Source of the DNA: an uncultured Pseudomonadota bacterium | GTDB lineage: Bacteria > Pseudomonadota > Alphaproteobacteria > Rs-D84 | Direction: 5' to 3' | Length of the DNA stretch: 64,000 nucleotides | Assembly (NCBI GenBank): GCA_902795435.1 | Contig: CADBLE010000006.1 | Span: 45,611 to 109,610 of the forward strand | Part shown: positions 2,196 through 59,953 of the stretch, piece by piece | How positions within the stretch are numbered: position 1 is the first letter of the stretch | How the letters are laid out: each line of letters begins with the position of its first letter | Made by a program: the position numbers and the translations under genes | The notes under the pieces: model-generated | The model's database searches: none | What the model was told of the DNA's origin: nothing | The model's input: only the letters and a program-made list of their open reading frames with translations

Positions 2196-3683
2196 ATGAA
2201 GTTTAAATCCTCTATCTTTGCAATTATGACCGTCATACCATGTGTAACATTGTATGTTAATGATGCAAAAGCTACAAATTGTTCTGCTGGTGATTACCAA
2301 TGGGCACTTGCCTGTCACAAATGCTCAAAAGGTTGCTATTGTGAAGGACACGGCGACAATCAATCATGGGGCGCTTTGACGTGTTATCCTGAATCTGGAT
2401 CATATAAACTTGGCGCAAAATCATTCGGTTCTGCTTATGCTCCTCATAAAATTGGCGTATGTCCAAAAGAATTTCCTGAATCAGATGCAGGTACTAACAG
2501 CGAAAGAAATTGTTATAAAGAATACAACGGAAAAAGATTATATAACAGATCGGAAACCTGTAAAGCTGGATGGTATTTTCCGAAAAACTCTAATGGTTGT
2601 GAACCATGTCCAAAAGGGGAAAAAGATTATTGTCCGGGTGGAACCTTTAAACCAAAAACCATCGACGACCAGGGATTATCCCAATGTTCCAGTTCACAAA
2701 AAGCAAATTCAAATCATTCCGGATGCGAAAACAAAGCTATAAATGTAACTTGTAAAGCGGGACAATATTTACAAGCCGGAATGACATATTGCACACCATG
2801 TCGCGACAGATATTATTGTCTTGGCGGATCATTCACTACAGCATCTATTGACCAAGGGTTAAAAAGTTGTACCAACAACAGCAAACCAAATGCAGCAAAG
2901 ACAGCGTGCGTTATCACTTGCAAGGCGGGACAATATTTACCTGGGAAAGCAGCTTCTTGTAGATCTTGCAAAGACAGATATTATTGTCCAGGCGGAACAT
3001 ATTTTGCCAGTCCAAATGTGTTAGCATACAATCGTGACCAGGGTTTATTATCTTGTCCATCTAATAAAGTACCAAACAAGGACAAGACCGCATGTGAATT
3101 TCAAAAAAATGTCCATGATGCAAAACCTGTAGATTCACAACCTGTAGAAAATGGTCCGGAAACATTTAATTGTTCTGTGGGTCAATATTTACCTGCAAAA
3201 GCAAAAAATTGCCAACAATGTAAATCAGGTTATTATTGTACCGGTGGTGATTATGCTTATGCCGATATTGACCAGGGTGCCGCCCAATGTCCTGCTGGAT
3301 TCCATCCAAACGATGTACAAACAGAATGTGAAAAAGATTTACCAAACGAAGTTACATGTGGCGCAGGATTTTATTTGCCATCCAAAACGATGGAATGTAA
3401 AAAATGTACAAATTCTAAACGCTATTGCCCTGGTGGAAAAACTTTCAAGAAAGCGGATTTTGACCAAGGTATCTATAATTGCCCAACAACCAGTGTGGCA
3501 AACGATGATAAAAGCGCTTGCGTTTTGAAATTGTCAAAATCATTCTTGCAATACGGTTCAAATGAAAAAGCATCATTGTCCGAACAATGTTGGGCAAATA
3601 CAGATTCAGCAAAATATAAAATATGCTTGTTTGGAAACCAAGTCGTTTTGCCAGAAGTTGTCATTGACACTGACGCTGAATAA
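2196..3683 (+). CDS. Secreted Cys-rich repeat protein, paralog 1 (ephrin-receptor-like / furin-like six-Cys modules)
   Basis: N-terminal signal peptide (MKFKSSIFAIMTVIPCVTLYVNDAKA). At least 5 modules of the form C-x-[AV]-G-x-Y-[LF]-P-x(3-5)-C-x2-C-x(3-5)-Y-C-x-G-G-x(6-12)-DQG-x3-C-x(8-10)-C. Conserved C-terminal block CVLKLSKSFLQYG...SEQCW...C. Confidence 0.8.
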   Translation: MKFKSSIFAIMTVIPCVTLYVNDAKATNCSAGDYQWALACHKCSKGCYCEGHGDNQSWGALTCYPESGSYKLGAKSFGSAYAPHKIGVCPKEFPESDAGTNSERNCYKEYNGKRLYNRSETCKAGWYFPKNSNGCEPCPKGEKDYCPGGTFKPKTIDDQGLSQCSSSQKANSNHSGCENKAINVTCKAGQYLQAGMTYCTPCRDRYYCLGGSFTTASIDQGLKSCTNNSKPNAAKTACVITCKAGQYLPGKAASCRSCKDRYYCPGGTYFASPNVLAYNRDQGLLSCPSNKVPNKDKTACEFQKNVHDAKPVDSQPVENGPETFNCSVGQYLPAKAKNCQQCKSGYYCTGGDYAYADIDQGAAQCPAGFHPNDVQTECEKDLPNEVTCGAGFYLPSKTMECKKCTNSKRYCPGGKTFKKADFDQGIYNCPTTSVANDDKSACVLKLSKSFLQYGSNEKASLSEQCWANTDSAKYKICLFGNQVVLPEVVIDTDAE

Positions 3684-11970: not shown

Positions 11971-12046
11971 TCGGGCATAGTTCAGTCGGTAGAACAACGG
12001 ACTGTTAATCCGTATGTCACTGGTTCGAGTCCAGTTGCCCGAGCCA
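11971..12046 (+). tRNA. tRNA-Asn (anticodon GTT), CCA encoded
   Basis: Acceptor TCGGGCA/TGCCCGA. Anticodon stem-loop CGGA-CTGTTAA-TCCG. T-arm ACTGG-TTCGAGT-CCAGT, then G + CCA. Confidence 0.92.
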
Positions 12047-31843: not shown

Positions 31844-33190
31844 ATGGAAATTAAAAAGTCATTAAAATTAAGTAGCAAAACAAAAGTACAAGAATTACAA
31901 CCAGATCCAAACAAAAAGTACAGAGTACACGATAGCGACCAAAGCGAATTATGTATTCTTGTCTACCCTTCCGGTAAAAAGAGCTGGGAAATTTATAAAA
32001 AAATTAAGGGCACTAACAAAATCAAAGAAACTATTTTGGGGAACTTCCCGGATTTACTATATGAAAGAGCACGTGCAGAAGTACAGAAACAACTATTAGA
32101 AATGGCTTCAAACGCCCTTAATCCTAAAGCTAACTTATGTCCAAAATTGGACCCTAAAACCACTTTATCAGAATGGTTTTATAATGAATACATTCCTAAA
32201 TTTTGTTGTGATAGAGATCCCAAAACAAACAGCAAAGATGAAGGGATGTTTAGAATTTTATTAAATAGTTTACACGATAAACCTATCTTCTCTATTCAGA
32301 AAGCAGAATTAATGCAACTACATAAACAGATAAAAGATTCTAATCTAAGCCCACAAACAGCAAATCGGGCAATAGGTATATTAAAAGCAATGTTCAACAT
32401 ACTAATAAGGGAAGATTTGGCTCCAGATACATTCAGAAATCCTGCTATTGGTATAAAATATTACCCAGAAGAAGCAAGACACGTATTTATAACACCCGAA
32501 CATCTGCCATTTTTTATAGAAGAATTAGAAAACTGGCCAAATCCGGGATTCATAAATTTCGTCAAACTAAGTTTGTTTTCTGGTCTAAGGGAAAATGAAA
32601 TCTTACAATTAAAATGGTCAAATCTGAAAACAATAGACTTAACAACATCAACTGTGACCCCAAATGAGGTTGTACACATTGAACAACCCAAAGGGCATAA
32701 CAAAAGTGGTGCGAAAGATTTTGCCATATCGGCAGAATTCAAAAACGTATTGAAACAAATGAATTCTATAAACCATAACCCAGAAGATTATTTATTTCCT
32801 AGTCGAGAAGATACGACAAAACATGTAAAAAACTATACACACGTTTGGCATAGATTTTTAGACCGCCTGAAGGCCAGATTGAAACAAGAAGGGATTGAGT
32901 TTCACGATCCTATAGACGAAGAACCAGACACATATATACAATATAAAGTCAATGGTAAAATTGTTACAAGAAAAAAACGTAAAAATCATATGTACAGAAT
33001 CCATGACCTTAGACGTAGTGTCGGGGCTTATATGATCAAGGCCGGCAGATCTTGTGAGCAGATAGCCAAGGTATTAGGAAACACACCAGCTGTTGTACAG
33101 AAAACTTATTCCCCTATGCTTAAAGAAGACCAACAGGTTTATCTTGAATCTGGCATGGCTGAACTTACTGATGCAATGAAAATAAAATAA
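31844..33190 (+). CDS. int: Tyrosine recombinase / phage-type integrase
   Basis: SAM-like N-domain. Catalytic residues are in the expected order: GLRENEILQLKW (Arg), HDLRRSVGAYM (His-x-x-Arg), VVQKTYSPM (Tyr). SD AAAGGAG. Confidence 0.85.
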   Translation: MEIKKSLKLSSKTKVQELQPDPNKKYRVHDSDQSELCILVYPSGKKSWEIYKKIKGTNKIKETILGNFPDLLYERARAEVQKQLLEMASNALNPKANLCPKLDPKTTLSEWFYNEYIPKFCCDRDPKTNSKDEGMFRILLNSLHDKPIFSIQKAELMQLHKQIKDSNLSPQTANRAIGILKAMFNILIREDLAPDTFRNPAIGIKYYPEEARHVFITPEHLPFFIEELENWPNPGFINFVKLSLFSGLRENEILQLKWSNLKTIDLTTSTVTPNEVVHIEQPKGHNKSGAKDFAISAEFKNVLKQMNSINHNPEDYLFPSREDTTKHVKNYTHVWHRFLDRLKARLKQEGIEFHDPIDEEPDTYIQYKVNGKIVTRKKRKNHMYRIHDLRRSVGAYMIKAGRSCEQIAKVLGNTPAVVQKTYSPMLKEDQQVYLESGMAELTDAMKIK

Positions 33191-33662: not shown

Positions 33663-33737
33663 GAGCCAGATTTCCGGGGCTTTCAAGACTTTTTGTTTTG
33701 AGGCCTTTTTTCTTAAATCCTACCAGAATCCAACTAA
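33663..33737 (+). repeat. Right island junction (attR-like) direct repeat
   Basis: GAGCCAGATTTCCGG followed by the 60-bp repeat at 33678-33737 (see 12041-12116). CAGATTTCCGGGG also occurs at 33434-33446. Confidence 0.85.
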
Positions 33738-33871
33738 TTCCATTAATTCTGGTTAAATCTGGTTAATAATCCTACCAATTTTATCGCTAGCTCTTTAGGA
33801 TTAAATTTACATAAATCTATTGAAAAATCCGCTTTTATACCTATATAAATAGCAATAAAAAAGGTAAAAAA

Positions 33872-44039: not shown

Positions 44040-45903
44040 AATTATCCTTCGTTTTCCGAACTTTTATCTGTCCCATCAAAAATTGCATTTTCTTTCTAGC
44101 CCTTTCGGTGTGTTTTACAAATAAATTATCCCCACTGAATAATTCTGTCAATATTTCTTTATCTTGTTGGGAAGAACCTGTTTGTGCGAATGTTTTTAAT
44201 ATTTTACGAAATTTGCTTGTTGCGTTTTTAGATATATCATACATTATATCAAATAATTCTTGTTTATCTTCATCTCTGACAGATATATATAAATTTATTA
44301 TTTTTTCAGCCGAAGAATCATCATTAAATTTTGTTATATTTTCCATATATTTTAATAAAATTTTTTTACGAATATCAAAATTTAAATTTTCATAATTTTT
44401 TAGATTTATTTTTCCTTCTGTATATCTTTCAATACATTTGTTCAATAAATCATTTAAATTTTCTGAAAATTTAGTTATGTAAAACTCTCTTATTTCCAGA
44501 GTTTCTTTGTTTCTGTTTATTAGCCAAGACATATCCAGATGTTCAAAATGATGATTTTTAAGGTAATCTGTATCAGAAATTTCAGATTGAATATTTTTCA
44601 ATTTATGTTCTATATCTTCTAATTTTTGTTTATATTCTGATACAGTTTTTTGATATTTTTGTATTTGTTGTTCAGAATCAAAATATTCAGAAAATTGTAC
44701 TGTATGTGTAAAGCCCGGACCTTCTGATAAATGCATTTTACCTAATTCATCAAATAACAAATCTAATTGTTTTTCTATTTCTTTAATTTTCTGATTTTGT
44801 AATTCAATTTTTTGTTGTTCTGCATTTCGTTGTTGAACCCGAGAATCTATATTAGATTGGACTGTTTCTAAATTTCCATCTTTCACAGGCATATAAGTTT
44901 TATTTTTTCCTTTTTCAGCAAGCCATGCATTAAATCTTTCATTTTTAGAATAACTTAAATATTCAGTGTTTGGTCTGGTGTATTCTTTTAACAACTGAAA
45001 TTCAGGTGAATTTTCATCTATTTTATACAAATAAAAATCGTTTGGATTATCCATAAAAGACCAAACAATATATGTTCCTTTGGTTTTGTTATCAAAACGA
45101 TTTACCATTGTTTCGTTGTGTGTTGACGGATTAGATTGAGTTTTATGTAATTCTATTCCTGCGTTATCGAAAAATATTGAATTTGGTGTTTGTTCGTATT
45201 CATAAACAAAACCAAATCTTATTTTTGACACCGGCAATTTATTTTCATGGCCGCTATAATCTTTTGCACCAAAAATTCCAGAAAATGTAATTCCATAACC
45301 AACGTCTGTCGTGGCATATCTTAAAAAACGAGTATTATAACCACTTACAACGGAATAAGCATCTGGTATGGTTGAACCACATAAAAGTGTTCCGTATGGA
45401 AAAACTTTTCTCAAATCTTCTTGATAACGTGAAGATTTTCTATCTATATTTATAACATCTGGTGATTTTTGTAATTTTGATAAAACATCGGCAATATCTT
45501 TTTCTTTTGGTCCATTTTGTGTTTGTCCTCTGTTATAACCAACCAATCTATTTAAATCAAGTATATGTGGATAAAAAATTTCTGTATCATCTGTGCCATA
45601 TTGTTCCCTGCGGGCAAGTTCGTATTCTTGCAGTCCCTGTTTTAACACATTCCAAAAAGTTTTTCTGTCTGCTGGTTGCAATGCCGGTGTAATAATTGAA
45701 TATGTTTTTATATCAGGGTGATTATCTATTCTTTCGTCTATTAAAATTTTATCTGTTTCCTTGCCATCAGTTGTTGTCTGGAAACCAAGACTTTCAAGGA
45801 AATCACGCAAAGCATAAATATTTTGTGTTTTTATTGGTATTTCTATTGCCACTGGTTCATTTACATTATGACCCAAGAAAAAATTATCATATCTATCAAG
45901 CAT
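43975..45903 (-). CDS. Hypothetical protein (642 aa) with C-terminal coiled-coil half
   Basis: Long uninterrupted ORF. The 3-prime end overlaps the convergent exonuclease gene by 65 nt. No motif assigned. Confidence 0.6.
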   Translation of the reverse strand: MLDRYDNFFLGHNVNEPVAIEIPIKTQNIYALRDFLESLGFQTTTDGKETDKILIDERIDNHPDIKTYSIITPALQPADRKTFWNVLKQGLQEYELARREQYGTDDTEIFYPHILDLNRLVGYNRGQTQNGPKEKDIADVLSKLQKSPDVINIDRKSSRYQEDLRKVFPYGTLLCGSTIPDAYSVVSGYNTRFLRYATTDVGYGITFSGIFGAKDYSGHENKLPVSKIRFGFVYEYEQTPNSIFFDNAGIELHKTQSNPSTHNETMVNRFDNKTKGTYIVWSFMDNPNDFYLYKIDENSPEFQLLKEYTRPNTEYLSYSKNERFNAWLAEKGKNKTYMPVKDGNLETVQSNIDSRVQQRNAEQQKIELQNQKIKEIEKQLDLLFDELGKMHLSEGPGFTHTVQFSEYFDSEQQIQKYQKTVSEYKQKLEDIEHKLKNIQSEISDTDYLKNHHFEHLDMSWLINRNKETLEIREFYITKFSENLNDLLNKCIERYTEGKINLKNYENLNFDIRKKILLKYMENITKFNDDSSAEKIINLYISVRDEDKQELFDIMYDISKNATSKFRKILKTFAQTGSSQQDKEILTELFSGDNLFVKHTERARKKMQFLMGQIKVRKTKDNFISYFSIMILCLCGNILFPLK

Positions 45904-52292: not shown

Positions 52293-55200
52293 GTGAAAAA
52301 TATCTATAATATTATATTGAAAACCATTGGTTTTTCGGCCTTTTGTTTATTGTTTAATACAAATTCGTTTGCGGCGTATTCAGATGCTGAATGTTTTGGT
52401 GGCACAGATGGTGTACCATTTCCAACAGCCAATCTCACCATTGTAGATTCTAGTAGCGAAGTTGCTTATGGTTCTACGGTATTAAATGCCGAAACTTTAC
52501 TCTATAACAACCCTAAACAAACATCTGCGGTTTTACACGAAGACGGCATTATTAAATGTACCGGCACGACCAATTGTACTTTAAAAGATTATAAATCATC
52601 TGGCATGGACGAAAATGCTTATACATCAGAATTAATACAATGGATTGATGGCATGTCTTGGTCTGTCAATTTCCAAGGAAAAGGAACGGTTAGTGGTTAT
52701 GCTTTTTGTGGTCCATCTGGTTGGTCAACAGATAAACAAATAAAAACTGGTAAGGTAGGTGGCACTTATAGTGGTTGCGGTTGTACAATAACTGATTTCT
52801 CTGACGAAAATACTACTGTTGCACAACATACATTTGTTGTTAATAAATACACACAATCATCAGGCGATTGGCAACAGAAAACTAATGACTGCCGTTCTAA
52901 ATGTCCGGCTTTGTGTGCAAACCGTATAGCAACAGATTCCGCGTTCCGTCAAATTTTATTCCAAGAATGCCCTGTATTTGAAACTGGTGGTGGTACTGGT
53001 GGTGAAGACACCCCAACCCAAATACATTGTGATGCCGGTTCTTATTTACCAGCGGGCGCAACAACATGTCAAACATGTGATGGCACAAATAATTATTGTG
53101 AAGGCGGTGATTTCTATCAAGATAACACTCAAAACCAAGGTATTGCAGAATGTCCATTTGGTTTTGAACCAAACAACTCTCATTCTGCATGTTCACCTTT
53201 GTCTATTATTTGCGAAGCTGGTGAATATTTGCCTGCTACAAAGACAATATGTGAAAAATGTAAAGACAATTATTATTGCGAAGAAGACATATTTAATTAT
53301 TCCACAACAGAAAACCAAGGATTAAAGACATGCGAATTTGGTTACGAACCAAACAGCGGACATACCGCATGCCAATTAAAATCTATACATTGTGGTAATG
53401 GTTATTATTTACCAAAGAATTCATTAACATGTACTGCATGTATCGGATTCGAATATTGCCCTGAAAACACATATAATTTCTCGGCTTCTGATGAACAAGG
53501 TAAAAACATCTGTGGTGCTGGAACGGTTCCAAATGAAAATCATTCTGCCTGTATTGAAAAAACAATCGTATGTCCTGCTGGAAAATATTTACCAAATAAC
53601 AGCCATGACGAATATGATTGCCAATGGTGTCCAGATCCTTATGAAGCCGGCGATTATTACTACTGTCCTGGCGGTGAATATGATGCAAATTATCCATCAA
53701 ATAATGGTATGAATTTATGTCCAGAATATTCATACAGCGAAGAAGAATCTTCATACTGCACATGTAATGAAGGTTACACAACCGATGGTAAAACCGCAAA
53801 TGCATCAAACAAAACAACAACTACAACTGCTTGTGTTCCAGAAGGTTCCGCTGTCTATAATGCAAGTTATTATTGCGACACAGACACAGAATCTTTAGGG
53901 TCTGCAACAATAAGCGTTGGTTCTTTGTTCACTTTGATATCAAATATTGATTTTGATAATCATGTGTTATGTGAAAAATCTGGTTATGATTTCGGTGGTT
54001 GGCGTGATGAATTTGGAAACGAATATTCCGCAGGTGATTCATTCACGTGGAATTATGAAACAGATGTCAGATTTACAGCCATTTGGAATCAAAAACCTGT
54101 TTATACCGTATCTTATTCATGCGGCAGTGACGCAACGGGTGGATATGCACCTGATTCAGACGATGTTGTTTCTGGTGACCAATACACAACACGTGCAAAC
54201 ACATGTGAAAAAACCGGAAATAATTTCTTAGGTTGGGTATATAATGATGACGATTTATACGAAGCCGGCGAAACATTCACATATAATTATAACTCTGGAA
54301 TCACACTTGTTCCATTATGGGAAGAAATAACCATAACTTGCCAACCTGGATTCTGGGCAACTGGAAACGCAACAACATGTGATTCAGAATGTTTGCAAGG
54401 ATACTATTGTGGTGGTGAAACATATAAATTTGACGGACAAACACACGGTCTGACAAAATGTGATTCAAATTTACCATCATGGGCATCAGCACATGTGTAT
54501 AGCGAATTTGGTGCTACATCCGAAAACGATTGCAGAATTTCTGTCGCGATGGGCGTTTATGCAGACGAAGACGGCCTGCACCAATGCGAAGAAATGTTCT
54601 ATTGTCCTGGGTTCAGCGGTTCTGTTGTTGAATTCAATTCTGCACTGAACAATTCTGGCTTCGTTGGTTTGGCAGATTGCAGTGATGCACCAAACTATAA
54701 AGATTGGGGTTGGACACATGGTATAACCAGCGCACAAGGTTCAACATCTGTCAATGATTGCAAAATCATTATCGCACCTGCGACATATATGGACACAGAA
54801 GGCGTATTACACCAATGCCCTGCTGACCATTTCTGTCCTGGTCATACATACGAATATATTGATGCAGATACATTCTTTGTTGATTTGGTTTCATTAGGTG
54901 CTGGTATCTATGAATGCCCTGTGAATGCAACATCTGACAGCGGTTCAACATCTTGCCATTGTGCAGATGGATATATGTTAAACACAGACACAGGTATGTG
55001 TACCGCAGAATGTGGCGCGGGATTCTATCTGCCAACAAATGCAAACGCATGTATAGAAGTTGGCGCGGGATATTATTCACCAAACGGCGATTCTGAAAGA
55101 TACAAATGCCCAGATTATTTAACAACCACTGGTTCTGGCATTGGTGCTGATGAATACAGCGATTGCGGTAGAACATTACATATTGGTAACGAAACATTGC

Positions 55201-55373
55201 GTATGCGCAGTGTCCGTAAAACAACACCATCATTAAATGTAAAAATTGGAAACGCAGTATATTATGGCGACATGACATTGGTTCCAACAAATATAAATGC
55301 GAACACAACCAAAAAATTACGTGTAAAATATGGTAATGTTGAACAATATGTTCATGACACTACAATAGATTAA
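52293..55373 (+). CDS. Large secreted Cys-rich repeat protein, paralog 4, with Listeria-Bacteroides-type repeats
   Basis: GTG start after AGGGAG. Signal peptide. Six-Cys modules (CDAGSYLPAGATTCQTCDGTNNYCEGG..., CEAGEYLPATKTICEKC...). Two Flg_new-like repeats (CEKSGYDFGGWRDEFGNEYSAGDSFTWNYETDVRFTAIW; CEKTGNNFLGWVYNDDDLYEAGETFTYNYNSGITLVPLW). The C-terminus differs from paralogs 1-3. Confidence 0.8.
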   Translation: MKNIYNIILKTIGFSAFCLLFNTNSFAAYSDAECFGGTDGVPFPTANLTIVDSSSEVAYGSTVLNAETLLYNNPKQTSAVLHEDGIIKCTGTTNCTLKDYKSSGMDENAYTSELIQWIDGMSWSVNFQGKGTVSGYAFCGPSGWSTDKQIKTGKVGGTYSGCGCTITDFSDENTTVAQHTFVVNKYTQSSGDWQQKTNDCRSKCPALCANRIATDSAFRQILFQECPVFETGGGTGGEDTPTQIHCDAGSYLPAGATTCQTCDGTNNYCEGGDFYQDNTQNQGIAECPFGFEPNNSHSACSPLSIICEAGEYLPATKTICEKCKDNYYCEEDIFNYSTTENQGLKTCEFGYEPNSGHTACQLKSIHCGNGYYLPKNSLTCTACIGFEYCPENTYNFSASDEQGKNICGAGTVPNENHSACIEKTIVCPAGKYLPNNSHDEYDCQWCPDPYEAGDYYYCPGGEYDANYPSNNGMNLCPEYSYSEEESSYCTCNEGYTTDGKTANASNKTTTTTACVPEGSAVYNASYYCDTDTESLGSATISVGSLFTLISNIDFDNHVLCEKSGYDFGGWRDEFGNEYSAGDSFTWNYETDVRFTAIWNQKPVYTVSYSCGSDATGGYAPDSDDVVSGDQYTTRANTCEKTGNNFLGWVYNDDDLYEAGETFTYNYNSGITLVPLWEEITITCQPGFWATGNATTCDSECLQGYYCGGETYKFDGQTHGLTKCDSNLPSWASAHVYSEFGATSENDCRISVAMGVYADEDGLHQCEEMFYCPGFSGSVVEFNSALNNSGFVGLADCSDAPNYKDWGWTHGITSAQGSTSVNDCKIIIAPATYMDTEGVLHQCPADHFCPGHTYEYIDADTFFVDLVSLGAGIYECPVNATSDSGSTSCHCADGYMLNTDTGMCTAECGAGFYLPTNANACIEVGAGYYSPNGDSERYKCPDYLTTTGSGIGADEYSDCGRTLHIGNETLRMRSVRKTTPSLNVKIGNAVYYGDMTLVPTNINANTTKKLRVKYGNVEQYVHDTTID

Positions 55374-55623: not shown

Positions 55624-55699
55624 GGAGGCATAGCTCAGTTGGTAGAGCAAATGACTTTTAATCATTGGGTCCAGGGTTCGAGTCCCTGTGCCTCCACCA
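55624..55699 (+). tRNA. tRNA-Lys (anticodon TTT), CCA encoded
   Basis: Acceptor GGAGGCA/TGCCTCC, D-arm GCTC/GAGC, anticodon stem-loop AATGA-CTTTTAA-TCATT, T-arm CAGGG-TTCGAGT-CCCTG, then A + CCA. Confidence 0.93.
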
Positions 55700-55710
55700 A
55701 AAAGATTTAA

Positions 55711-55732
55711 CGACCAGATTGGTCGTTTTTTT
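55711..55732 (+). terminator. Rho-independent terminator after tRNA-Lys
   Basis: CGACCA / TGGTCG stem, 3-nt loop, T7 run. Confidence 0.7.
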
Positions 55733-55742
55733 ATTGCACATG

Positions 55743-55831
55743 GGACGAGAACCCGTTCGAAAATAAGTAGATTTTGCAAACGCAGTGCAGCGAAATCGTC
55801 ACGTTTTGCACGCAGGGCTTTGCCCGAGTGA
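55743..55831 (+). repeat. tRNA-associated conserved element (single unit), homologous to 881-979
   Basis: GGACGAGAA...GTTCGA leader plus the 67-nt core at 55765-55831, which is 62/67 identical by eye to 913-979 and includes the GGGC-TTT-GCCC hairpin. Confidence 0.8.
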
Positions 55832-55885
55832 GTCCCTGTGCCTCCACCAGAAAAATAAAAATGCGACCTTTTGGTCGTTTTTTTT
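55832..55885 (+). repeat. Duplicated tRNA-Lys 3-prime end (copy of 55682-55699) plus diverged second terminator
   Basis: GTCCCTGTGCCTCCACCA is repeated exactly. It is followed by a CGACC-TTTT-GGTCG hairpin plus T-run (55864-55885), a diverged copy of the first terminator. Confidence 0.85.
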
Positions 55886-55901
55886 ATTTTCGCACATGCC
55901 C

Positions 55902-56603
55902 CTATTTCTCTTTTCTTTTCATTTTCATACGGGTTGTATATCCGGTGGCAGAAAACCAATCGTCTATCATTGACAATGTTGTTTCAATATATCGTGCGAT
56001 TTCGCGTTTGGAATTATGATATTTACATTCGTTTAATATTTGATTTATCTCTTGTGTTATGAAAGACAATATTTGTGTATGTTGGGAATCCAAGACATCT
56101 ATTTTGTCTGATTTATACAGTAATTCTTCCAATTCGTTTAATTCACGACGAATTGACCGCAGATATTTTCGTTCTGGGTTTAATTTTCTGAAATTCAGAT
56201 TCAAATCTTGCATTGGGATTTCTATGCGTGGCAACCCTATCATATTTTTCATTTGTGATAAAATTTTCAACAAATGACCATCTATGGTATTTATCAGATT
56301 ATTGTGTATATGTTTATGAACGCGTCGTGTGATTAAAAAATTAGAATAATCATAAAACAAAAACACCAACGGTATTGCCAACAAAGATGCGGCTACATTA
56401 TCCATTAAATCTATCCAGCCCGGATCATGCAAATATTGTTGTGAAAAATCAAAAACAATCACCCCGCCCGCAATAGACAGTACATACGGAATCATTTTCA
56501 GAAGAACAGTTGCAAAATTCATATAAAAAATTATACATAAAAATCCAAACTTTAACACAGGAAACAAAACCCAGAAAAGATTCCCCTGATTCTTGAAAAG
56601 CAC
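55902..56603 (-). CDS. Hypothetical membrane protein
   Basis: The N-terminal half has 3-4 hydrophobic helices. Start uncertain: GTG at 56603 or ATG at 56522. Confidence 0.5.
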   Translation of the reverse strand: MLFKNQGNLFWVLFPVLKFGFLCIIFYMNFATVLLKMIPYVLSIAGGVIVFDFSQQYLHDPGWIDLMDNVAASLLAIPLVFLFYDYSNFLITRRVHKHIHNNLINTIDGHLLKILSQMKNMIGLPRIEIPMQDLNLNFRKLNPERKYLRSIRRELNELEELLYKSDKIDVLDSQHTQILSFITQEINQILNECKYHNSKREIARYIETTLSMIDDWFSATGYTTRMKMKRKEK

Positions 56604-56658
56604 CTAGAAAAATGATATAATATGCACATAGGAATTGGTAAAGCCAAAAGGTTTTGTT

Positions 56659-59289
56659 ATGTCTTTAGAGGACTTTCTTAAAAAATATTATCGGCAGTTG
56701 CATTTTAACTCTATGGAACCAGAGGTTATGGCGCGTCTGCAAGAACTTATCAAGAAAGGTAATCTTACAGACAAAATGCAATTGTGGGTTTCTAAATATA
56801 TGCATCGTAATGCGGCCGGCAAATACGAACTGAACGCATTACCAGATACAACATCCACAAACGATTTACCAGATGATGTCGCGAGAGATTTATTCCAGGC
56901 ATGCCACCAGGCATTTGTTGGAATGGCGGGTGCCCGTGCAACATTTGCAGATTCTAATCCTCAGGCACGCGATTTCTTGGACAAATATTTCGGCCAAGGA
57001 AAAATGTTCAATGTTTCCAAGGCGACAGACGCCTGTAGAAACGGTATCATTGCCATAACAAATTTAATCAAAACAGACCATTATGTTAAACGTTGGTTAT
57101 TGACACAAACATATACCAACGAAAAAGGCGAACAAAAAAAACTGTTTGATAACGAAGAAAAACTGAACGATTTTCTTGCCAAATGCGACCGCGAAGAATA
57201 TAACACCAAAGGTAATGTTCAAGATAAAGTAAAGAAAGTTGCTGAAGCATTTGAAAGAGCAACCTATCAAGATTTATCAAACACCAGATTGGCCGCTATC
57301 ACCGGCATAACAGACCATATCAGTAATGTAACAGATTCTGGTGCATTTGCTCTGGACCAAACCAGCATTAATGCTCAATTACAGGCATTCAGGAATAACA
57401 TAAACGAAGACCAAGGTATTCTGCAGGTTCTTTATAAAAATAAAAACATTCGTTCACAATTTGCCAAACACGACAATGGTACAATAACCAGCATCATAGA
57501 AGGCAAAGCAATAGACGAAATTAATTATCAGAAAAAAGATTCTCCAGATTATATTGACCCAAAAGTAAATGATGTATTAACACCATTACAACAACTTGAA
57601 AAATGGGCGGGCGATACATATAGCGACACCTTGAAAAAATACGAAGAATTGCGCGGTGGGCATTTATTCTTTAAGGCAGAATCACAAGATATCTGCAAAG
57701 CAATAGATAAAGTCAGCGATAAAGCAAAAAATCCTGAAGATAAAATAACACCTGCAAACGGGTTGTTAAAATTACTTGAAAAATCCGAAGATGTTAAAAA
57801 GAAATTGGGGGCAAACCCGGTTGCAAGACAACATTTTGAATGGTTCGTTGAAACAATGAACGATGTAAAAGATAAAATTCCAAAAGCAATTGATGGTTGT
57901 TGGAAAAACGCAGAACAAATGAAGTGCGTTATTGAACAAATTATATTAAAGGCAACTGACCCTCAAAATTCTGACCCACATGCGATGGAAAAAGCAAAAA
58001 CCGCGATGGAAATCATGACCGTTATGAAATACGGTATGTTGACCAGCAAAGTTATGGACGCCATGCGCCGAGAAGAATTCAGTATGTTTTCCGATGGTAA
58101 ATTGTCATGGAATAAAAACGAAGGAATTCAATTCGTTACCAAGGCATTTGATAAATCTGTAAAAGCGGCATTTTTAGGGGTTGGATACGGCGTAACATTT
58201 GTTCGCAACAAAATTATGATGAGTGGTATGGAATTCACAAACCAAAACAATCGAAATGGCGCGTTGGGAAACAGAATGAACCAAGAACACCAAAGAATAG
58301 CCAGCGAACGAAATCTGGCCACTAATGAATTGAACTCTGCATTGGCAAACCGAACAAACGTACAAAATAATTTAAACGCATTAAATCAAGCGGGGGTTAA
58401 TGAACAAACTGTTAACGGTCAAGGCGGACTTAGGGAACAAAAAGAACAAATAGAACAAGTATTAAATCAACACGCACAAGCACGCGATAACGCTGCAACC
58501 CAAATGGAAGAAGCCGAAAGAAGACGTAACGAAGCACAAGGAATAATGGATACAAATCAACAGGCACATCAAAGAGGTCAAGAATTAGATGATATCTTGC
58601 ACGACAGGGACATTGATGCAAACGTTCAAAATTTGCAGAACCAAATGCAAACAATCACAGACCAAATAAATGAAATAAACAATAAATTAAATGCAAACCC
58701 ATTACTTGATGAACAAGGAAACCCTATTACCGACAACCGCGCGGCGGCCGCATATAAAAGACAACTATATGATACATTGGGGAATTTGTATAACCAAAAC
58801 AGACAATTGACCGCACAAATAAATGCAGAAAATGCAAGACGTGGCGACCAAGCAAGACATAATCAAGCAACCGCGGAATTGGCCACTATTCAAGATCAGA
58901 TAAACGCTTATAATAATGCACAAACTGCTTATAATGCTGCTGATGCTGACTACACTGCGGCCGAAAACGATTATAACAATGCCGACAATGCATACAATAA
59001 TTATGCCCAGGCACACAATTATGGCGACATATCAGACAAAGTAAATCGTTTTAATGACGCGACAAGCAATTTAACAGAAATCAACGACACGATTGATAAA
59101 AAACAACGTCTTTTGCAAGAAATGACACCAGAACAACAAAACAAGGTTGTTCAATTAGAAAACTTTTGGAACCTTTTGCAAAGTGGTCGCGCAACCACAT
59201 GGCGTTTATTTACAAGTCGTGCCCAGGCACAATTTAACCCAAACCAAGTTTATCAAAACTATGTCAACGACTATGGATTAGCGGCTTGA
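56659..59289 (+). CDS. Large hypothetical protein with Q/N/A-rich coiled-coil C-terminal third
   Basis: The ATG at 56659 is preceded by AAAGG (the track start at 56635 is TTG). The C-terminal 300 aa or so are low-complexity (NQ...AQ...NN repeats). Confidence 0.65.
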   Translation: MSLEDFLKKYYRQLHFNSMEPEVMARLQELIKKGNLTDKMQLWVSKYMHRNAAGKYELNALPDTTSTNDLPDDVARDLFQACHQAFVGMAGARATFADSNPQARDFLDKYFGQGKMFNVSKATDACRNGIIAITNLIKTDHYVKRWLLTQTYTNEKGEQKKLFDNEEKLNDFLAKCDREEYNTKGNVQDKVKKVAEAFERATYQDLSNTRLAAITGITDHISNVTDSGAFALDQTSINAQLQAFRNNINEDQGILQVLYKNKNIRSQFAKHDNGTITSIIEGKAIDEINYQKKDSPDYIDPKVNDVLTPLQQLEKWAGDTYSDTLKKYEELRGGHLFFKAESQDICKAIDKVSDKAKNPEDKITPANGLLKLLEKSEDVKKKLGANPVARQHFEWFVETMNDVKDKIPKAIDGCWKNAEQMKCVIEQIILKATDPQNSDPHAMEKAKTAMEIMTVMKYGMLTSKVMDAMRREEFSMFSDGKLSWNKNEGIQFVTKAFDKSVKAAFLGVGYGVTFVRNKIMMSGMEFTNQNNRNGALGNRMNQEHQRIASERNLATNELNSALANRTNVQNNLNALNQAGVNEQTVNGQGGLREQKEQIEQVLNQHAQARDNAATQMEEAERRRNEAQGIMDTNQQAHQRGQELDDILHDRDIDANVQNLQNQMQTITDQINEINNKLNANPLLDEQGNPITDNRAAAAYKRQLYDTLGNLYNQNRQLTAQINAENARRGDQARHNQATAELATIQDQINAYNNAQTAYNAADADYTAAENDYNNADNAYNNYAQAHNYGDISDKVNRFNDATSNLTEINDTIDKKQRLLQEMTPEQQNKVVQLENFWNLLQSGRATTWRLFTSRAQAQFNPNQVYQNYVNDYGLAA

Positions 59290-59386: not shown

Positions 59387-59953
59387 ATGACAAGAATTTT
59401 ACAAATTCGCAGGGGCACATCTGCACAAAACGATAATTTCACAGGATTGTCTGGCGAAATAACTTTTGATACAACAAATAAAACTGTGCGTGTGCATGAT
59501 GGCGAAACATTGGGCGGTTTTACACTCGCAAAATTTAGTGATGTTGAAAATGTTGTGTTTGATATAAATGATGTTTCGCCTGTATTCTGGACAGAATTAT
59601 TTGACACATACCAAAAAACATCTATCCAAAAATATGAAACCCAACCACAAACAATTTCATCTGAATCTGTATTCACAGATATAACGACCACTTTTGATAC
59701 AATTCCGTGTGTTTGTAATGCCGTTTTGGTGTGCATAACCCCAGATTGTGGATACAGCATAAATGACGAAGTAACCGCATTTGGAATTGGTATTTTTGAC
59801 ACACCGAAAATCAACACTTATATCAAAAATAATTTGATGCACATTCGCATGTTCACAGCGGGACAACCATTTTGGGTATGCAACAAAGACACAGGCGAAA
59901 AAACCAATATAACCCCAGAAAACTGGAAATTAAAATTTATAGTTTGTTATTGA
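59387..59953 (+). CDS. Protein with phage tail-fibre-type N-terminal motif (Mtd_N-like)
   Basis: MTRILQIRRGTSAQNDNFTGLSGEITFDTTNKTVRVHDGETLGG matches the LQLRRGT...GE...DT....R.GDG.T.GG motif found at the N-terminus of phage tropism determinants and tail fibres. Confidence 0.55.
   Translation: MTRILQIRRGTSAQNDNFTGLSGEITFDTTNKTVRVHDGETLGGFTLAKFSDVENVVFDINDVSPVFWTELFDTYQKTSIQKYETQPQTISSESVFTDITTTFDTIPCVCNAVLVCITPDCGYSINDEVTAFGIGIFDTPKINTYIKNNLMHIRMFTAGQPFWVCNKDTGEKTNITPENWKLKFIVCY

Follow-up and report, generated by a model that had tools for sequence, protein, structure and literature searches.

Arrays of partial tRNA 3' ends carrying a conserved folded module behind tRNA genes of gut Alphaproteobacteria

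Results

Arrays behind tRNA-Lys and tRNA-Arg

The analysed DNA, hereafter the window, is a stretch of 64,000 nucleotides (nt) from contig CADBLE010000006.1 of an uncultured alphaproteobacterium (positions 45,611 to 109,610). It is AT-rich (33% G+C) and carries genes for tRNA-Arg, tRNA-Asn and tRNA-Lys. A conserved core of 67 nt lies behind tRNA-Lys and tRNA-Arg, in each case between copies of the 3' end of that tRNA. The features of the Lys array are as follows.

55624-55699, + strand: tRNA-Lys(UUU), intact, CCA encoded (ARAGORN; Rfam tRNA, 76.5 bits)
55680-55734, + strand: first direct-repeat copy with the 3' half of the T-loop, the 3' strands of T-stem and acceptor, CCA and terminator 1 (repeat search; terminator at 55709-55727)
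55736-55754, + strand: T-arm of tRNA-Lys and part of its acceptor strand in inverted, degenerate form (GCACATGGGAC GAGAACCC; GCACATGGGACGAGAACCC), by sequence reading
55755-55760, + strand: half T-loop GTTCGA, directly 5' of the cassette
55761-55831, + strand: Lys core cassette, consisting of the 4-nt prefix AAAT (5' strand of helix P1) and the 67-nt core, with helices P1, P2, P3a and P3 and the tail GAGTGA
55832-55849, + strand: exact 18-nt copy of the tRNA-Lys 3' end (3' strands of T-stem and acceptor, ACCA)
55850-55898, + strand: diverged terminator copy and GCACATG, with which the inverted segment starts a second time

Ungapped comparison of the Lys core (55765-55831) with the core behind tRNA-Arg (913-979) showed 62/67 identities, and positions 55832-55849 are identical to the tRNA-Lys 3' end at 55682-55699. 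An earlier note, made from the sequence alone, had given these matches together with the coordinates and the diverged terminator, and all of them hold. The segment that it quoted as GGACGAGAA...GTTCGA is the inverted tRNA-Lys copy followed by a half T-arm. The direct repeat as a whole spans 27 nt with 93% identity (55680-55706 and 55830-55856). The inverted copy forms a duplex of -17.7 kcal/mol with its cognate 3' end and of -12.8 kcal/mol or weaker with non-Lys ends; a cleaner Lys inverted copy, GCACAGGGAC, is held by locus L022 (loci outside the window are cited by L numbers). In the near-identical strains L027 and L028 more of this second inverted segment is preserved, CACGGGACGAGAACCC; the Lys repeat unit, about 80 nt long, thus starts in the T-loop, includes the terminator and ends with the inverted copy.

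The Arg array displayed the same order of parts, with two cassettes in tandem.

760-836, + strand: tRNA-Arg(ACG) (ARAGORN, Rfam)
822-874, + strand: first direct-repeat copy, tRNA 3' end and terminator (repeat search; terminator at 844-866)
875-899, + strand: T-arm and acceptor of tRNA-Arg in inverted orientation (25 nt; complementarity to 806-830, 76%)
901-908, + strand: half T-arm GGGTTCGA
909-979, + strand: core cassette 1, prefix CAAC
980-1051, + strand: core cassette 2, prefix CCAC, in tandem with cassette 1 (identity of 89% over 63 nt; P3 shows compensatory changes)
1052-1106, + strand: second direct-repeat copy, partial tRNA 3' end and terminator
1103-1137, + strand: what remains of the right end of another element type, 'B' (TTGTTTATCACGGGGAATGA), and the third tRNA-Arg 3' end, which is degenerate (TGGGCGCGACAGAA) (repeat search)

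Here the direct repeat comprises 53 nt with 96% identity (822-874 and 1054-1106), and a third, partial and degenerate copy lies at 1124-1137. At both loci terminator-like hairpins stand 3' of the tRNA and of the duplicated end. The invariant 18-mer AAGTAGATTTTGCAAACG of the core occurs at three sites in the window (913, 984 and 55765; 0.16 expected from shuffles), and a profile search of the window detected no further core. The three copies in 64 kb thus all lie at tRNA genes, and the 18-mer and profile searches confirmed that tRNA-Asn lacks the core.

Distribution of the core

A scan of species-representative genomes yielded 13 loci and a metagenome scan nine more; others were reached through neighbouring proteins. 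All 13 loci of the genome scan lie in metagenome-assembled Alphaproteobacteria, three of them titled Candidatus Enterousia and most with rumen or gut sample names, and no taxonomy is attached to the nine metagenome contigs. About 23 loci show this layout, and related genomes carry the core behind tRNA-Arg(ACG), Arg(TCT), Lys, Pro and Tyr. This bears out the earlier proposal that the internal element is conserved and the flanking duplication is specific to each tRNA; at least five tRNA species are followed by the same core.

In 295 kb of related sequence standard cores lie mostly 17-350 nt 3' of a tRNA on the same strand, and none was found in a plainly non-tRNA context. The core adjoins partial tRNA-like ends in L010, L011 and L015. 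In L007 it is inverted beside a tRNA-Gln that bears another element type; L003 shows the module layout of L007, with no tRNA detected in L003. A copy of the cognate tRNA 3' end follows 16 of the 18 tRNA-linked cores, and tRNAs without a core (Asn, Gly, Gln) displayed no such copy.

Searches of viral contigs and of plasmid and phage collections revealed no match to the element. Rfam 15 at its gathering score detected only tRNAs in the window and 22 loci, and with E-values up to 10 the elements themselves gave only terminator-like chance matches. Literature searches revealed no description of such an element, the nearest precedent being the tycheposon paper (10.1101/2020.12.28.424599). The feature is real, conserved across many species and absent from the RNA and repeat libraries searched, in agreement with the earlier note, which did not recognise it as a described repeat family.

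Junctions in the T-loop and inverted tRNA copies

Both junctions of the cassette lie inside the T-loop of a partial tRNA copy, between TTCGA and RTC. The sequence (G)GGTTCGA precedes the first cassette in nearly all loci, and ATCC.. or GTCC.. comes after the last cassette, representing the remaining T-loop and the 3' strand of the T-stem of the local tRNA. The earlier note had proposed, as one possibility, a generic targeting of tRNA 3' ends; the site is instead this T-loop position in a partial copy of the tRNA.

An inverted copy of the local tRNA T-arm and acceptor strand stands between the first terminator and the half T-arm. In a matrix of cognate and non-cognate duplexes it matches its own tRNA in about two thirds of the loci and is decayed in the rest. 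Cleaner versions than that of the window Lys locus occur in L022 and in L016 and L019, where it reads GCACCAGAAGGAACGAACCC (exact complement, GCACCCAGAAGGATTCGAACCC). The leader hairpin GTTGC-GAA-GCAAC occurs with its strands swapped in L010 (GCAAC-GAA-GTTGC) and L017 (GCAATC-GTAA-GATTGC), and its loop varies (ACGAGAA; ATGCGAA or AACGAA in other lineages). A further inverted pair of 11 bp, AGTTCGAAAGT...ACTTTCGAACT, which again contains the T-loop-like GTTCGA, encloses about 30 nt immediately 3' of the core in L003 (380-450) and L007 (2265-2335). This suggests that GTTCGA/TCGAAC half-sites mark other module boundaries too.

Fold and covariation of the core

RNAalifold analysis of 20 distinct core copies predicted three helices, P1, P2 and P3a, with a variable hairpin P3 inside P3a. 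In P1 the first 4-5 nt of the cassette (CAAC, AACC, AAAAU) pair with GGUUG or GUUUU; in P2 GAUUUUGC pairs with GCGAAAUC around the loop AAACGNAGUGCA; and in P3a C-N-C pairs with G-N'-G in the tail GAGNGA. Two hairpin domains result, P1 around P2 and P3a around the variable P3. Because the cassette starts at the first nucleotide of P1 and ends 1 nt past P3a, the boundaries of the DNA are also those of the structure.

Pair-forming cells amounted to 95.6%, against 84.6% in shuffles, and the covariation score to 0.262, against 0.097, with 0 of 500 shuffles reaching 0.262. When the partners were slid by 1-3 columns, pairing dropped to 35-47%. The middle pair of P3a occurs as G-C (8), C-G (6) and A-U (3), P1 alternates between CG and AU, and P2 varies through G.U only, with a conserved U.G pair in 18 of the 20 sequences. 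This U.G pair would be a C.A mismatch on the opposite strand, which identifies the + strand as the folding strand. Compensatory changes in P3 distinguish Arg core 1 from core 2 (GGGC/GCCC and GGCAU/AUGCC) and the window Lys core from its orthologue in L022 (GGGC/GCCC and GGAU/AUCC). Compensatory substitutions on one strand, the generic criterion of a structured non-coding RNA, were therefore found.

Longer units fold better (z -4.6 for L006, -2.9 for L022). Minimum free energy folds closed the units of the window Lys locus, L009, L018 and, with a short helix, L006 by pairing of the inverted and direct copies; the L022 unit was not closed in this way. This closing helix was rejected as a conserved requirement, having decayed in L001, L002, L004 and L012.

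Turnover of cassettes and exchange between loci

Syntenic loci differ in what they hold. L016 and L019 share an identical leader, followed by the core and a cassette 'C' in L016 and by a variant core and the core in L019. The thymidine kinase/tRNA-Arg locus of the window has counterparts in L030 (thymidine kinase 81% identical to that of the window), with the variant core only; in L031 (56%), with a short scar ending in a tRNA-Arg 3' end of another allele; in L032 (52%), with the 'B' element only; and in L033 (47%), with a shortened core that lacks P2. At tRNA-Lys, cores were found in L022 and L035 (the latter with a different P2 loop) and the variant core in L034. The tRNA-Lys site of L037 is empty: tRNA and terminator are followed by unrelated sequence, with neither inverted copy nor duplication. 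Inverted copy, half T-arm, cassette and duplicated end thus come together or not at all.

The nearest relative of the window Lys core is Arg core 1 of the same window (identity 0.90, identical P3) and not the orthologous copy of L022, which argues for an exchange of cassettes between loci within one genome. At acceptor position 70 the proximal tRNA-Arg end of L012 and L031 disagrees with the distal one (C or U), so that one of the two copies must have come from another lineage; with the resident 5' strand, the odd allele would pair as G3.U70 or A3.C70. The allele of the partial copy in L012 and L031 matches tRNA-Arg of other lineages.

The variant core (CAATGAGTAAAC...GAGTGCTAACGAATGCCCC..hairpin..GAGGGA) was observed in L005 (1968-2045), L019 (about 1900-1975), L030 (about 3342-3416) and at the tRNA-Lys locus of L034. 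It combines the 3' domain of the core with a different 5' domain, shows a compensatory change of its own (AAAC/GTTT and GAAC/GTTC) and fills the T-loop slot that the core uses, either by itself or next to the core in a tandem.

The tRNA-Asn island as local contrast

The third tRNA of the window borders an ordinary genomic island without a core (11971-33757).

11971-12046: tRNA-Asn(GUU) (ARAGORN, Rfam)
31844-33190: tyrosine integrase, P4-type (Phage_integrase and Arm-DNA-bind_3)

About 90 nt, from the last bases of tRNA-Asn through its terminator, are repeated at about 33664-33757. Pfam matches among the first 22 open reading frames (ORFs) of the window (3772-34720) comprise type III restriction-modification, SNF2 and AAA_11/12 helicases, DUF2726 and ankyrin repeats; these genes are likely cargo of the island. 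The motif TCCTACCAAAATCCAAC lies near both island ends (about 12096, 33309 and 33718) and may be an arm site of the integrase.

The island shows how duplications of a tRNA end and terminator arise in this genome, and what the Arg and Lys units lack. In common with classical tRNA-targeting elements, the units have direct repeats that include the tRNA 3' end; in place of an internal integrase gene there is an inter-repeat interval of about 95-180 nt, and in place of a single specific attB there are tRNA-Arg(ACG), Arg(TCT), Lys, Pro and Tyr. The earlier note had argued against a classical integrase with one fixed attB. For the shared cassette with its tRNA-specific direct and inverted flanks, which go beyond one fixed attB, the argument stands; for the duplicated end and terminator it does not, these being an ordinary trace of integration into a tRNA gene as at tRNA-Asn. 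Since the tRNA-Asn duplication comes with a real integrase, a classical integrase may still account for the duplications.

Neighbouring genes and the 'B' element

Both arrays are flanked by ORFs without a Pfam match, namely 1138-2061 (307 amino acids, aa) and 2196-3683 (495 aa) at tRNA-Arg, and 52293-55373 (1026 aa) and 56635-59289 (884 aa) at tRNA-Lys; the ORFs adjoining the two loci carry no Pfam domain. An all-against-all comparison of ORFs across loci revealed synteny only, with no protein family recurring at different tRNAs. A membrane-like protein of 206 aa (55902-56522) has more than 500 close homologues and belongs to no annotated family. In L034 and L037 the tRNA-Lys gene (with its array in L034) is inverted relative to this neighbour when compared with the window (55624-56522) and L035, and no tRNA lies beside the gene in L036 and L038. 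The ORF at 59387-59953 contains an Mtd_N domain, which in diversity-generating retroelements forms the N-terminus of the major tropism determinant.

The 'B' element is likewise framed by tRNA sequence. It lies behind tRNA-Arg and tRNA-Gln, intact in L004 (3690-3810, - strand), L005 (1740-1890), L032 (3290-3430) and, on the strand of tRNA-Gln, in L007 (2350-2470, - strand); the window holds the remnant at 1103-1137. It consists, in this order, of an inverted tRNA 3'-end copy, a GC-rich hairpin resembling a fossil tRNA end (..GGCGCAGCACCA), AATACGCA, a long AT-rich hairpin (GATGAACAATTAG...TTATTGTTTATC), AAGGGGAATGA and a direct tRNA 3' end. The motif TTGTTTATCAAGGGGAATGAATGGGTGCGCCA of the window remnant is also found in L004, L005, L006, L013 and L019.

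Discussion

Genes for tRNAs are classic landing sites of mobile DNA, and the accepted picture assigns one integrase to one tRNA. A gene-less folded module of 70-90 nt that keeps its sequence in tRNA-specific frames behind at least five tRNAs does not fit this picture. It looks like a small conserved non-coding module of an undescribed family of gut and rumen Alphaproteobacteria, an exchangeable cassette and not the debris of a classical integrase. We tentatively favour, with a probability of roughly 0.45, a reading in which arrays of the integration type, made of partial tRNA 3' ends, accommodate a structured cassette. The cassette would be exchangeable and specific for the T-loop, and would probably be transcribed by read-through from the tRNA promoter.

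Two layers would be combined in such arrays. In the first, the Arg and Lys loci are arrays of units, each made of the 3' half of the T-loop, the 3' strand of the acceptor, CCA and terminator. Circular DNA with a copy of a tRNA 3' end would integrate site-specifically at the tRNA gene, new units entering beside the tRNA and older ones shifting outward and decaying. The duplicated tRNA ends, their number, the outward decay and the foreign alleles are consistent with such serial site-specific integration. Partial tRNAs left by serial integration have been described for tycheposons (10.1101/2020.12.28.424599).

In the second layer, the 67-nt core would be a separate, self-contained structured cassette of about 71-88 nt, placed between TTCGA and RTC in the T-loop of a redundant partial tRNA. 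Cassettes (core, variant core, 'C', 'B') would be added, lost and swapped at exact boundaries, and exchanged among the tRNA loci of one genome. An insertion into the T-loop of a working tRNA would destroy it, hence only insertions in spare copies are seen. The + strand, which is the one that folds, has the orientation of the tRNA and ends at a terminator, from which an RNA made by read-through from the tRNA promoter is predicted as the most likely mode of expression. An interior shared by five tRNAs, the inverted copies and a bounded, covarying T-loop cassette that varies independently of its frame favour the two-layer arrangement over integration alone.

Several observations weigh against this arrangement. 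No recombinase, transposase or reverse transcriptase was found linked to any copy; the only integrase of the window is that of the Asn island, and the repeat of this island begins at the extreme 3' end of the tRNA and not in the T-loop. Promoter scans detected no promoter of its own 5' of the cassette, the only promoter-like sites being those of the tRNAs, and a terminator intervenes between the tRNA promoter and the cassette. Neither a cassette-free partial T-arm nor a circular junction was seen, so that the two layers were never observed separately. Single-sequence fold energies of the window copies are unremarkable (z -0.4 to -1.6). Seven near-identical contigs carry the same arrays, without gain or loss of a cassette, so that change must be slow, and strain-level polymorphism was discarded as proof of recent movement. 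Gene conversion could mimic the movement of cassettes. Ordinary integration, finally, leaves the inverted copy of the local tRNA 3' third unexplained; the TCGA palindrome at the junction might account for it, as a recombinase cutting there could join the ends in either orientation.

It is possible, if doubtful, that the cassettes represent an undescribed class of small, non-coding elements with specificity for the T-loop sequence of tRNAs. When they arrive they would create or recruit the inverted and direct copies of the local tRNA 3' third, and the unit would then be expressed as a tRNA-framed structured RNA, an acceptor/T-stem minihelix in which the cassette replaces the T-loop.

A family of true small-RNA genes that does not move at all is rather unlikely. 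The core would be co-transcribed with the tRNA, its copies would be kept alike by gene conversion, and the inverted and direct tRNA copies would form a closing helix with an NCCA tail, a minihelix mimic trimmed and stabilised by tRNA-processing enzymes. Covariation and folding of the + strand, the orientation with the tRNA and the terminator after each unit agree with such genes, as does the fact that a given tRNA keeps this arrangement in species that share 47-81% identity in the neighbouring proteins. In about two thirds of the loci the inverted copy is able to pair with the direct one, and the 18-nt tRNA-Lys end has stayed exact while its terminator drifted. However, the core is dispensable at a given tRNA, being absent from L030, L031, L032 and L037, the closing helix has decayed in the four loci named above, and in the Lys unit it spans only part of the acceptor strand. 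The missing promoter and the intervening upstream terminator speak against such genes as well, and distal units of an array lie behind two terminators.

The units could also be what is left of ordinary integrative elements, deleted and mobilisable in cis, with leader and core as arms beside attL and attR and the interior lost. Up to three repeats of tRNA end and terminator per locus, the most degenerate outermost in the window Arg locus, would be expected of such remnants, as would the allele differences between proximal and distal copies and the L011 unit beyond the apparent end of another element. The Asn island is a local precedent and the tycheposons are a published one (10.1101/2020.12.28.424599). 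This origin is nevertheless improbable: leader and core are separated by genes in 0 of about 23 loci, arms that bind protein would not show compensatory changes in four helices, the same arms would be needed for at least five different tRNA core sites, and number and type of cassettes vary independently of the frame.

Still less probable is a recombination site of folded single-stranded DNA, similar to integron attC or CTX phage attP, or a cassette moved by an HUH enzyme that recognises hairpins (IS200/IS605, REP/RAYT). The hairpins would then be enzyme substrates, and the inverted and direct tRNA copies would rebuild a mimic of the T-arm duplex within a single strand. This would agree with the strand-specific structure, the variable stem and conserved boxes, cassette boundaries that each follow a hairpin and end in ..GA, GTAG directly 5' of the P2 stem as in REP sequences, and the tandem cassettes and arrays; the palindromic TCGA of the T-loop could allow joining in either orientation and hence the inverted copies. 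But the scanned ORFs of the window (at least 150 aa) and the neighbours of the copies revealed no gene for a Y1 transposase, an integron integrase or a Rep protein, R boxes of attC are absent, the left and right hairpins are unrelated and the right one varies in sequence, and HUH transposition does not duplicate a target of 50-100 nt.

Other candidates were rejected: a transfer-messenger RNA (leader similar to GGGAUUUGCGAAACCC; UAG..GCAAACGA similar to a resume codon) was not found by ARAGORN, and it is contradicted, as is a protein-coding core, by non-synonymous variable positions and by changes in length other than multiples of three; hammerhead, hepatitis delta virus-like, hatchet and hairpin ribozymes and the kink-turn were compared by eye only, and none fits; a mimic of the sarcin-ricin loop in the leader hairpin (ACGAGAA), likewise seen by eye, fails as the leader loop is not conserved; and an inverted copy left by palindromic hairpin-opening footprints or by fold-back priming from the T-arm disagrees with the order of the pieces, the inverted piece being a copy of intact T-arm and acceptor. 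Miniature inverted-repeat transposable elements are marked by constant terminal inverted repeats, target-site duplications of 2-10 bp and many copies; here the flanking inverted and direct sequences vary with the tRNA, the duplications measure 20-100 nt and the 64 kb contain three copies.

A cassette that moves on its own would point to a recombination activity aimed at the most conserved sequence of tRNA genes; if the cassette is an RNA gene, it would be a new bacterial case of an RNA displayed on a tRNA-like frame. Should T-loop cassette and tRNA-framed RNA both prove true, a new kind of bacterial DNA mobility and a new family of tRNA-mimicking RNAs would be present in gut Alphaproteobacteria with reduced genomes. 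Either way the arrays offer a testable object in poorly studied gut bacteria with small genomes, and they would show that functional passengers, besides scars, can reside in partial-tRNA arrays.

Comparison with known systems

The RNA predicted here resembles MALAT1 mascRNA, the tRNA-miRNA units of gammaherpesviruses and engineered tRNA scaffolds, whose non-coding RNAs are set free by tRNA-processing enzymes. In all of them a structured RNA sits, or here would sit, in a tRNA-like frame that ends in NCCA and has the orientation of a strong tRNA promoter. Those systems are eukaryotic, viral or synthetic, whereas the frame here consists of acceptor and T-stem only and carries its insert in the T-loop. 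Non-canonical tRNA introns of Archaea share the insertion at the T-loop position and the presence of related inserts in several tRNAs. They interrupt a working tRNA, however, and are spliced at a bulge-helix-bulge, whereas in this bacterium the working tRNA is intact and the insert lies in a partial copy downstream.

The attC site and the attP of CTX phage are similar to the cassette in their strand-specific structure with compensatory change, in a variable stem beside conserved boxes and in the formation of cassette arrays; inverted copies could also rebuild a duplex target in a single strand. The hallmark of attC is a pair of boxes, R'' (RYYYAAC) and R' (GTTRRRY), that close a single imperfect palindrome. 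In contrast, the arrays described here have no recognised IntI or Xer context and no R'/R'' boxes, and show two independent hairpin domains in place of one long imperfect palindrome; the cassettes are non-coding and the repeats between them derive from tRNA. The one Phage_integrase match of the window is the P4-type integrase of the Asn island. REP/BIME sequences and the palindromic elements of IS200/IS605 are likewise short, non-coding and hairpin-based, with GTAG by the stem, tandem copies and no gene of their own. The cassette differs from them in its low copy number, its strict linkage to tRNAs and its long direct and inverted flanks derived from the target, and Y1_Tnp, RAYT or TnpA were not among the Pfam matches of the scanned window ORFs of at least 150 aa.

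The closest likeness is to the partial-tRNA arrays that tyrosine-recombinase elements leave by serial integration, as in genomic islands, tycheposons and cis-mobilisable remnants; the tRNA-Asn island of the window is a textbook example. There as here, one or more direct copies of the 3' end stand behind an intact tRNA, the units nearest to the tRNA are the newer ones, remnants are degenerate and the hotspot is conserved across species. The units described here are distinguished by their size of 130-250 nt, by the lack of genes and by one interior behind at least five tRNAs. Each unit moreover adds an inverted copy of the local tRNA 3' third and holds a covarying folded module inside the T-loop. 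The locus therefore extends a known kind of array in an unexpected way.

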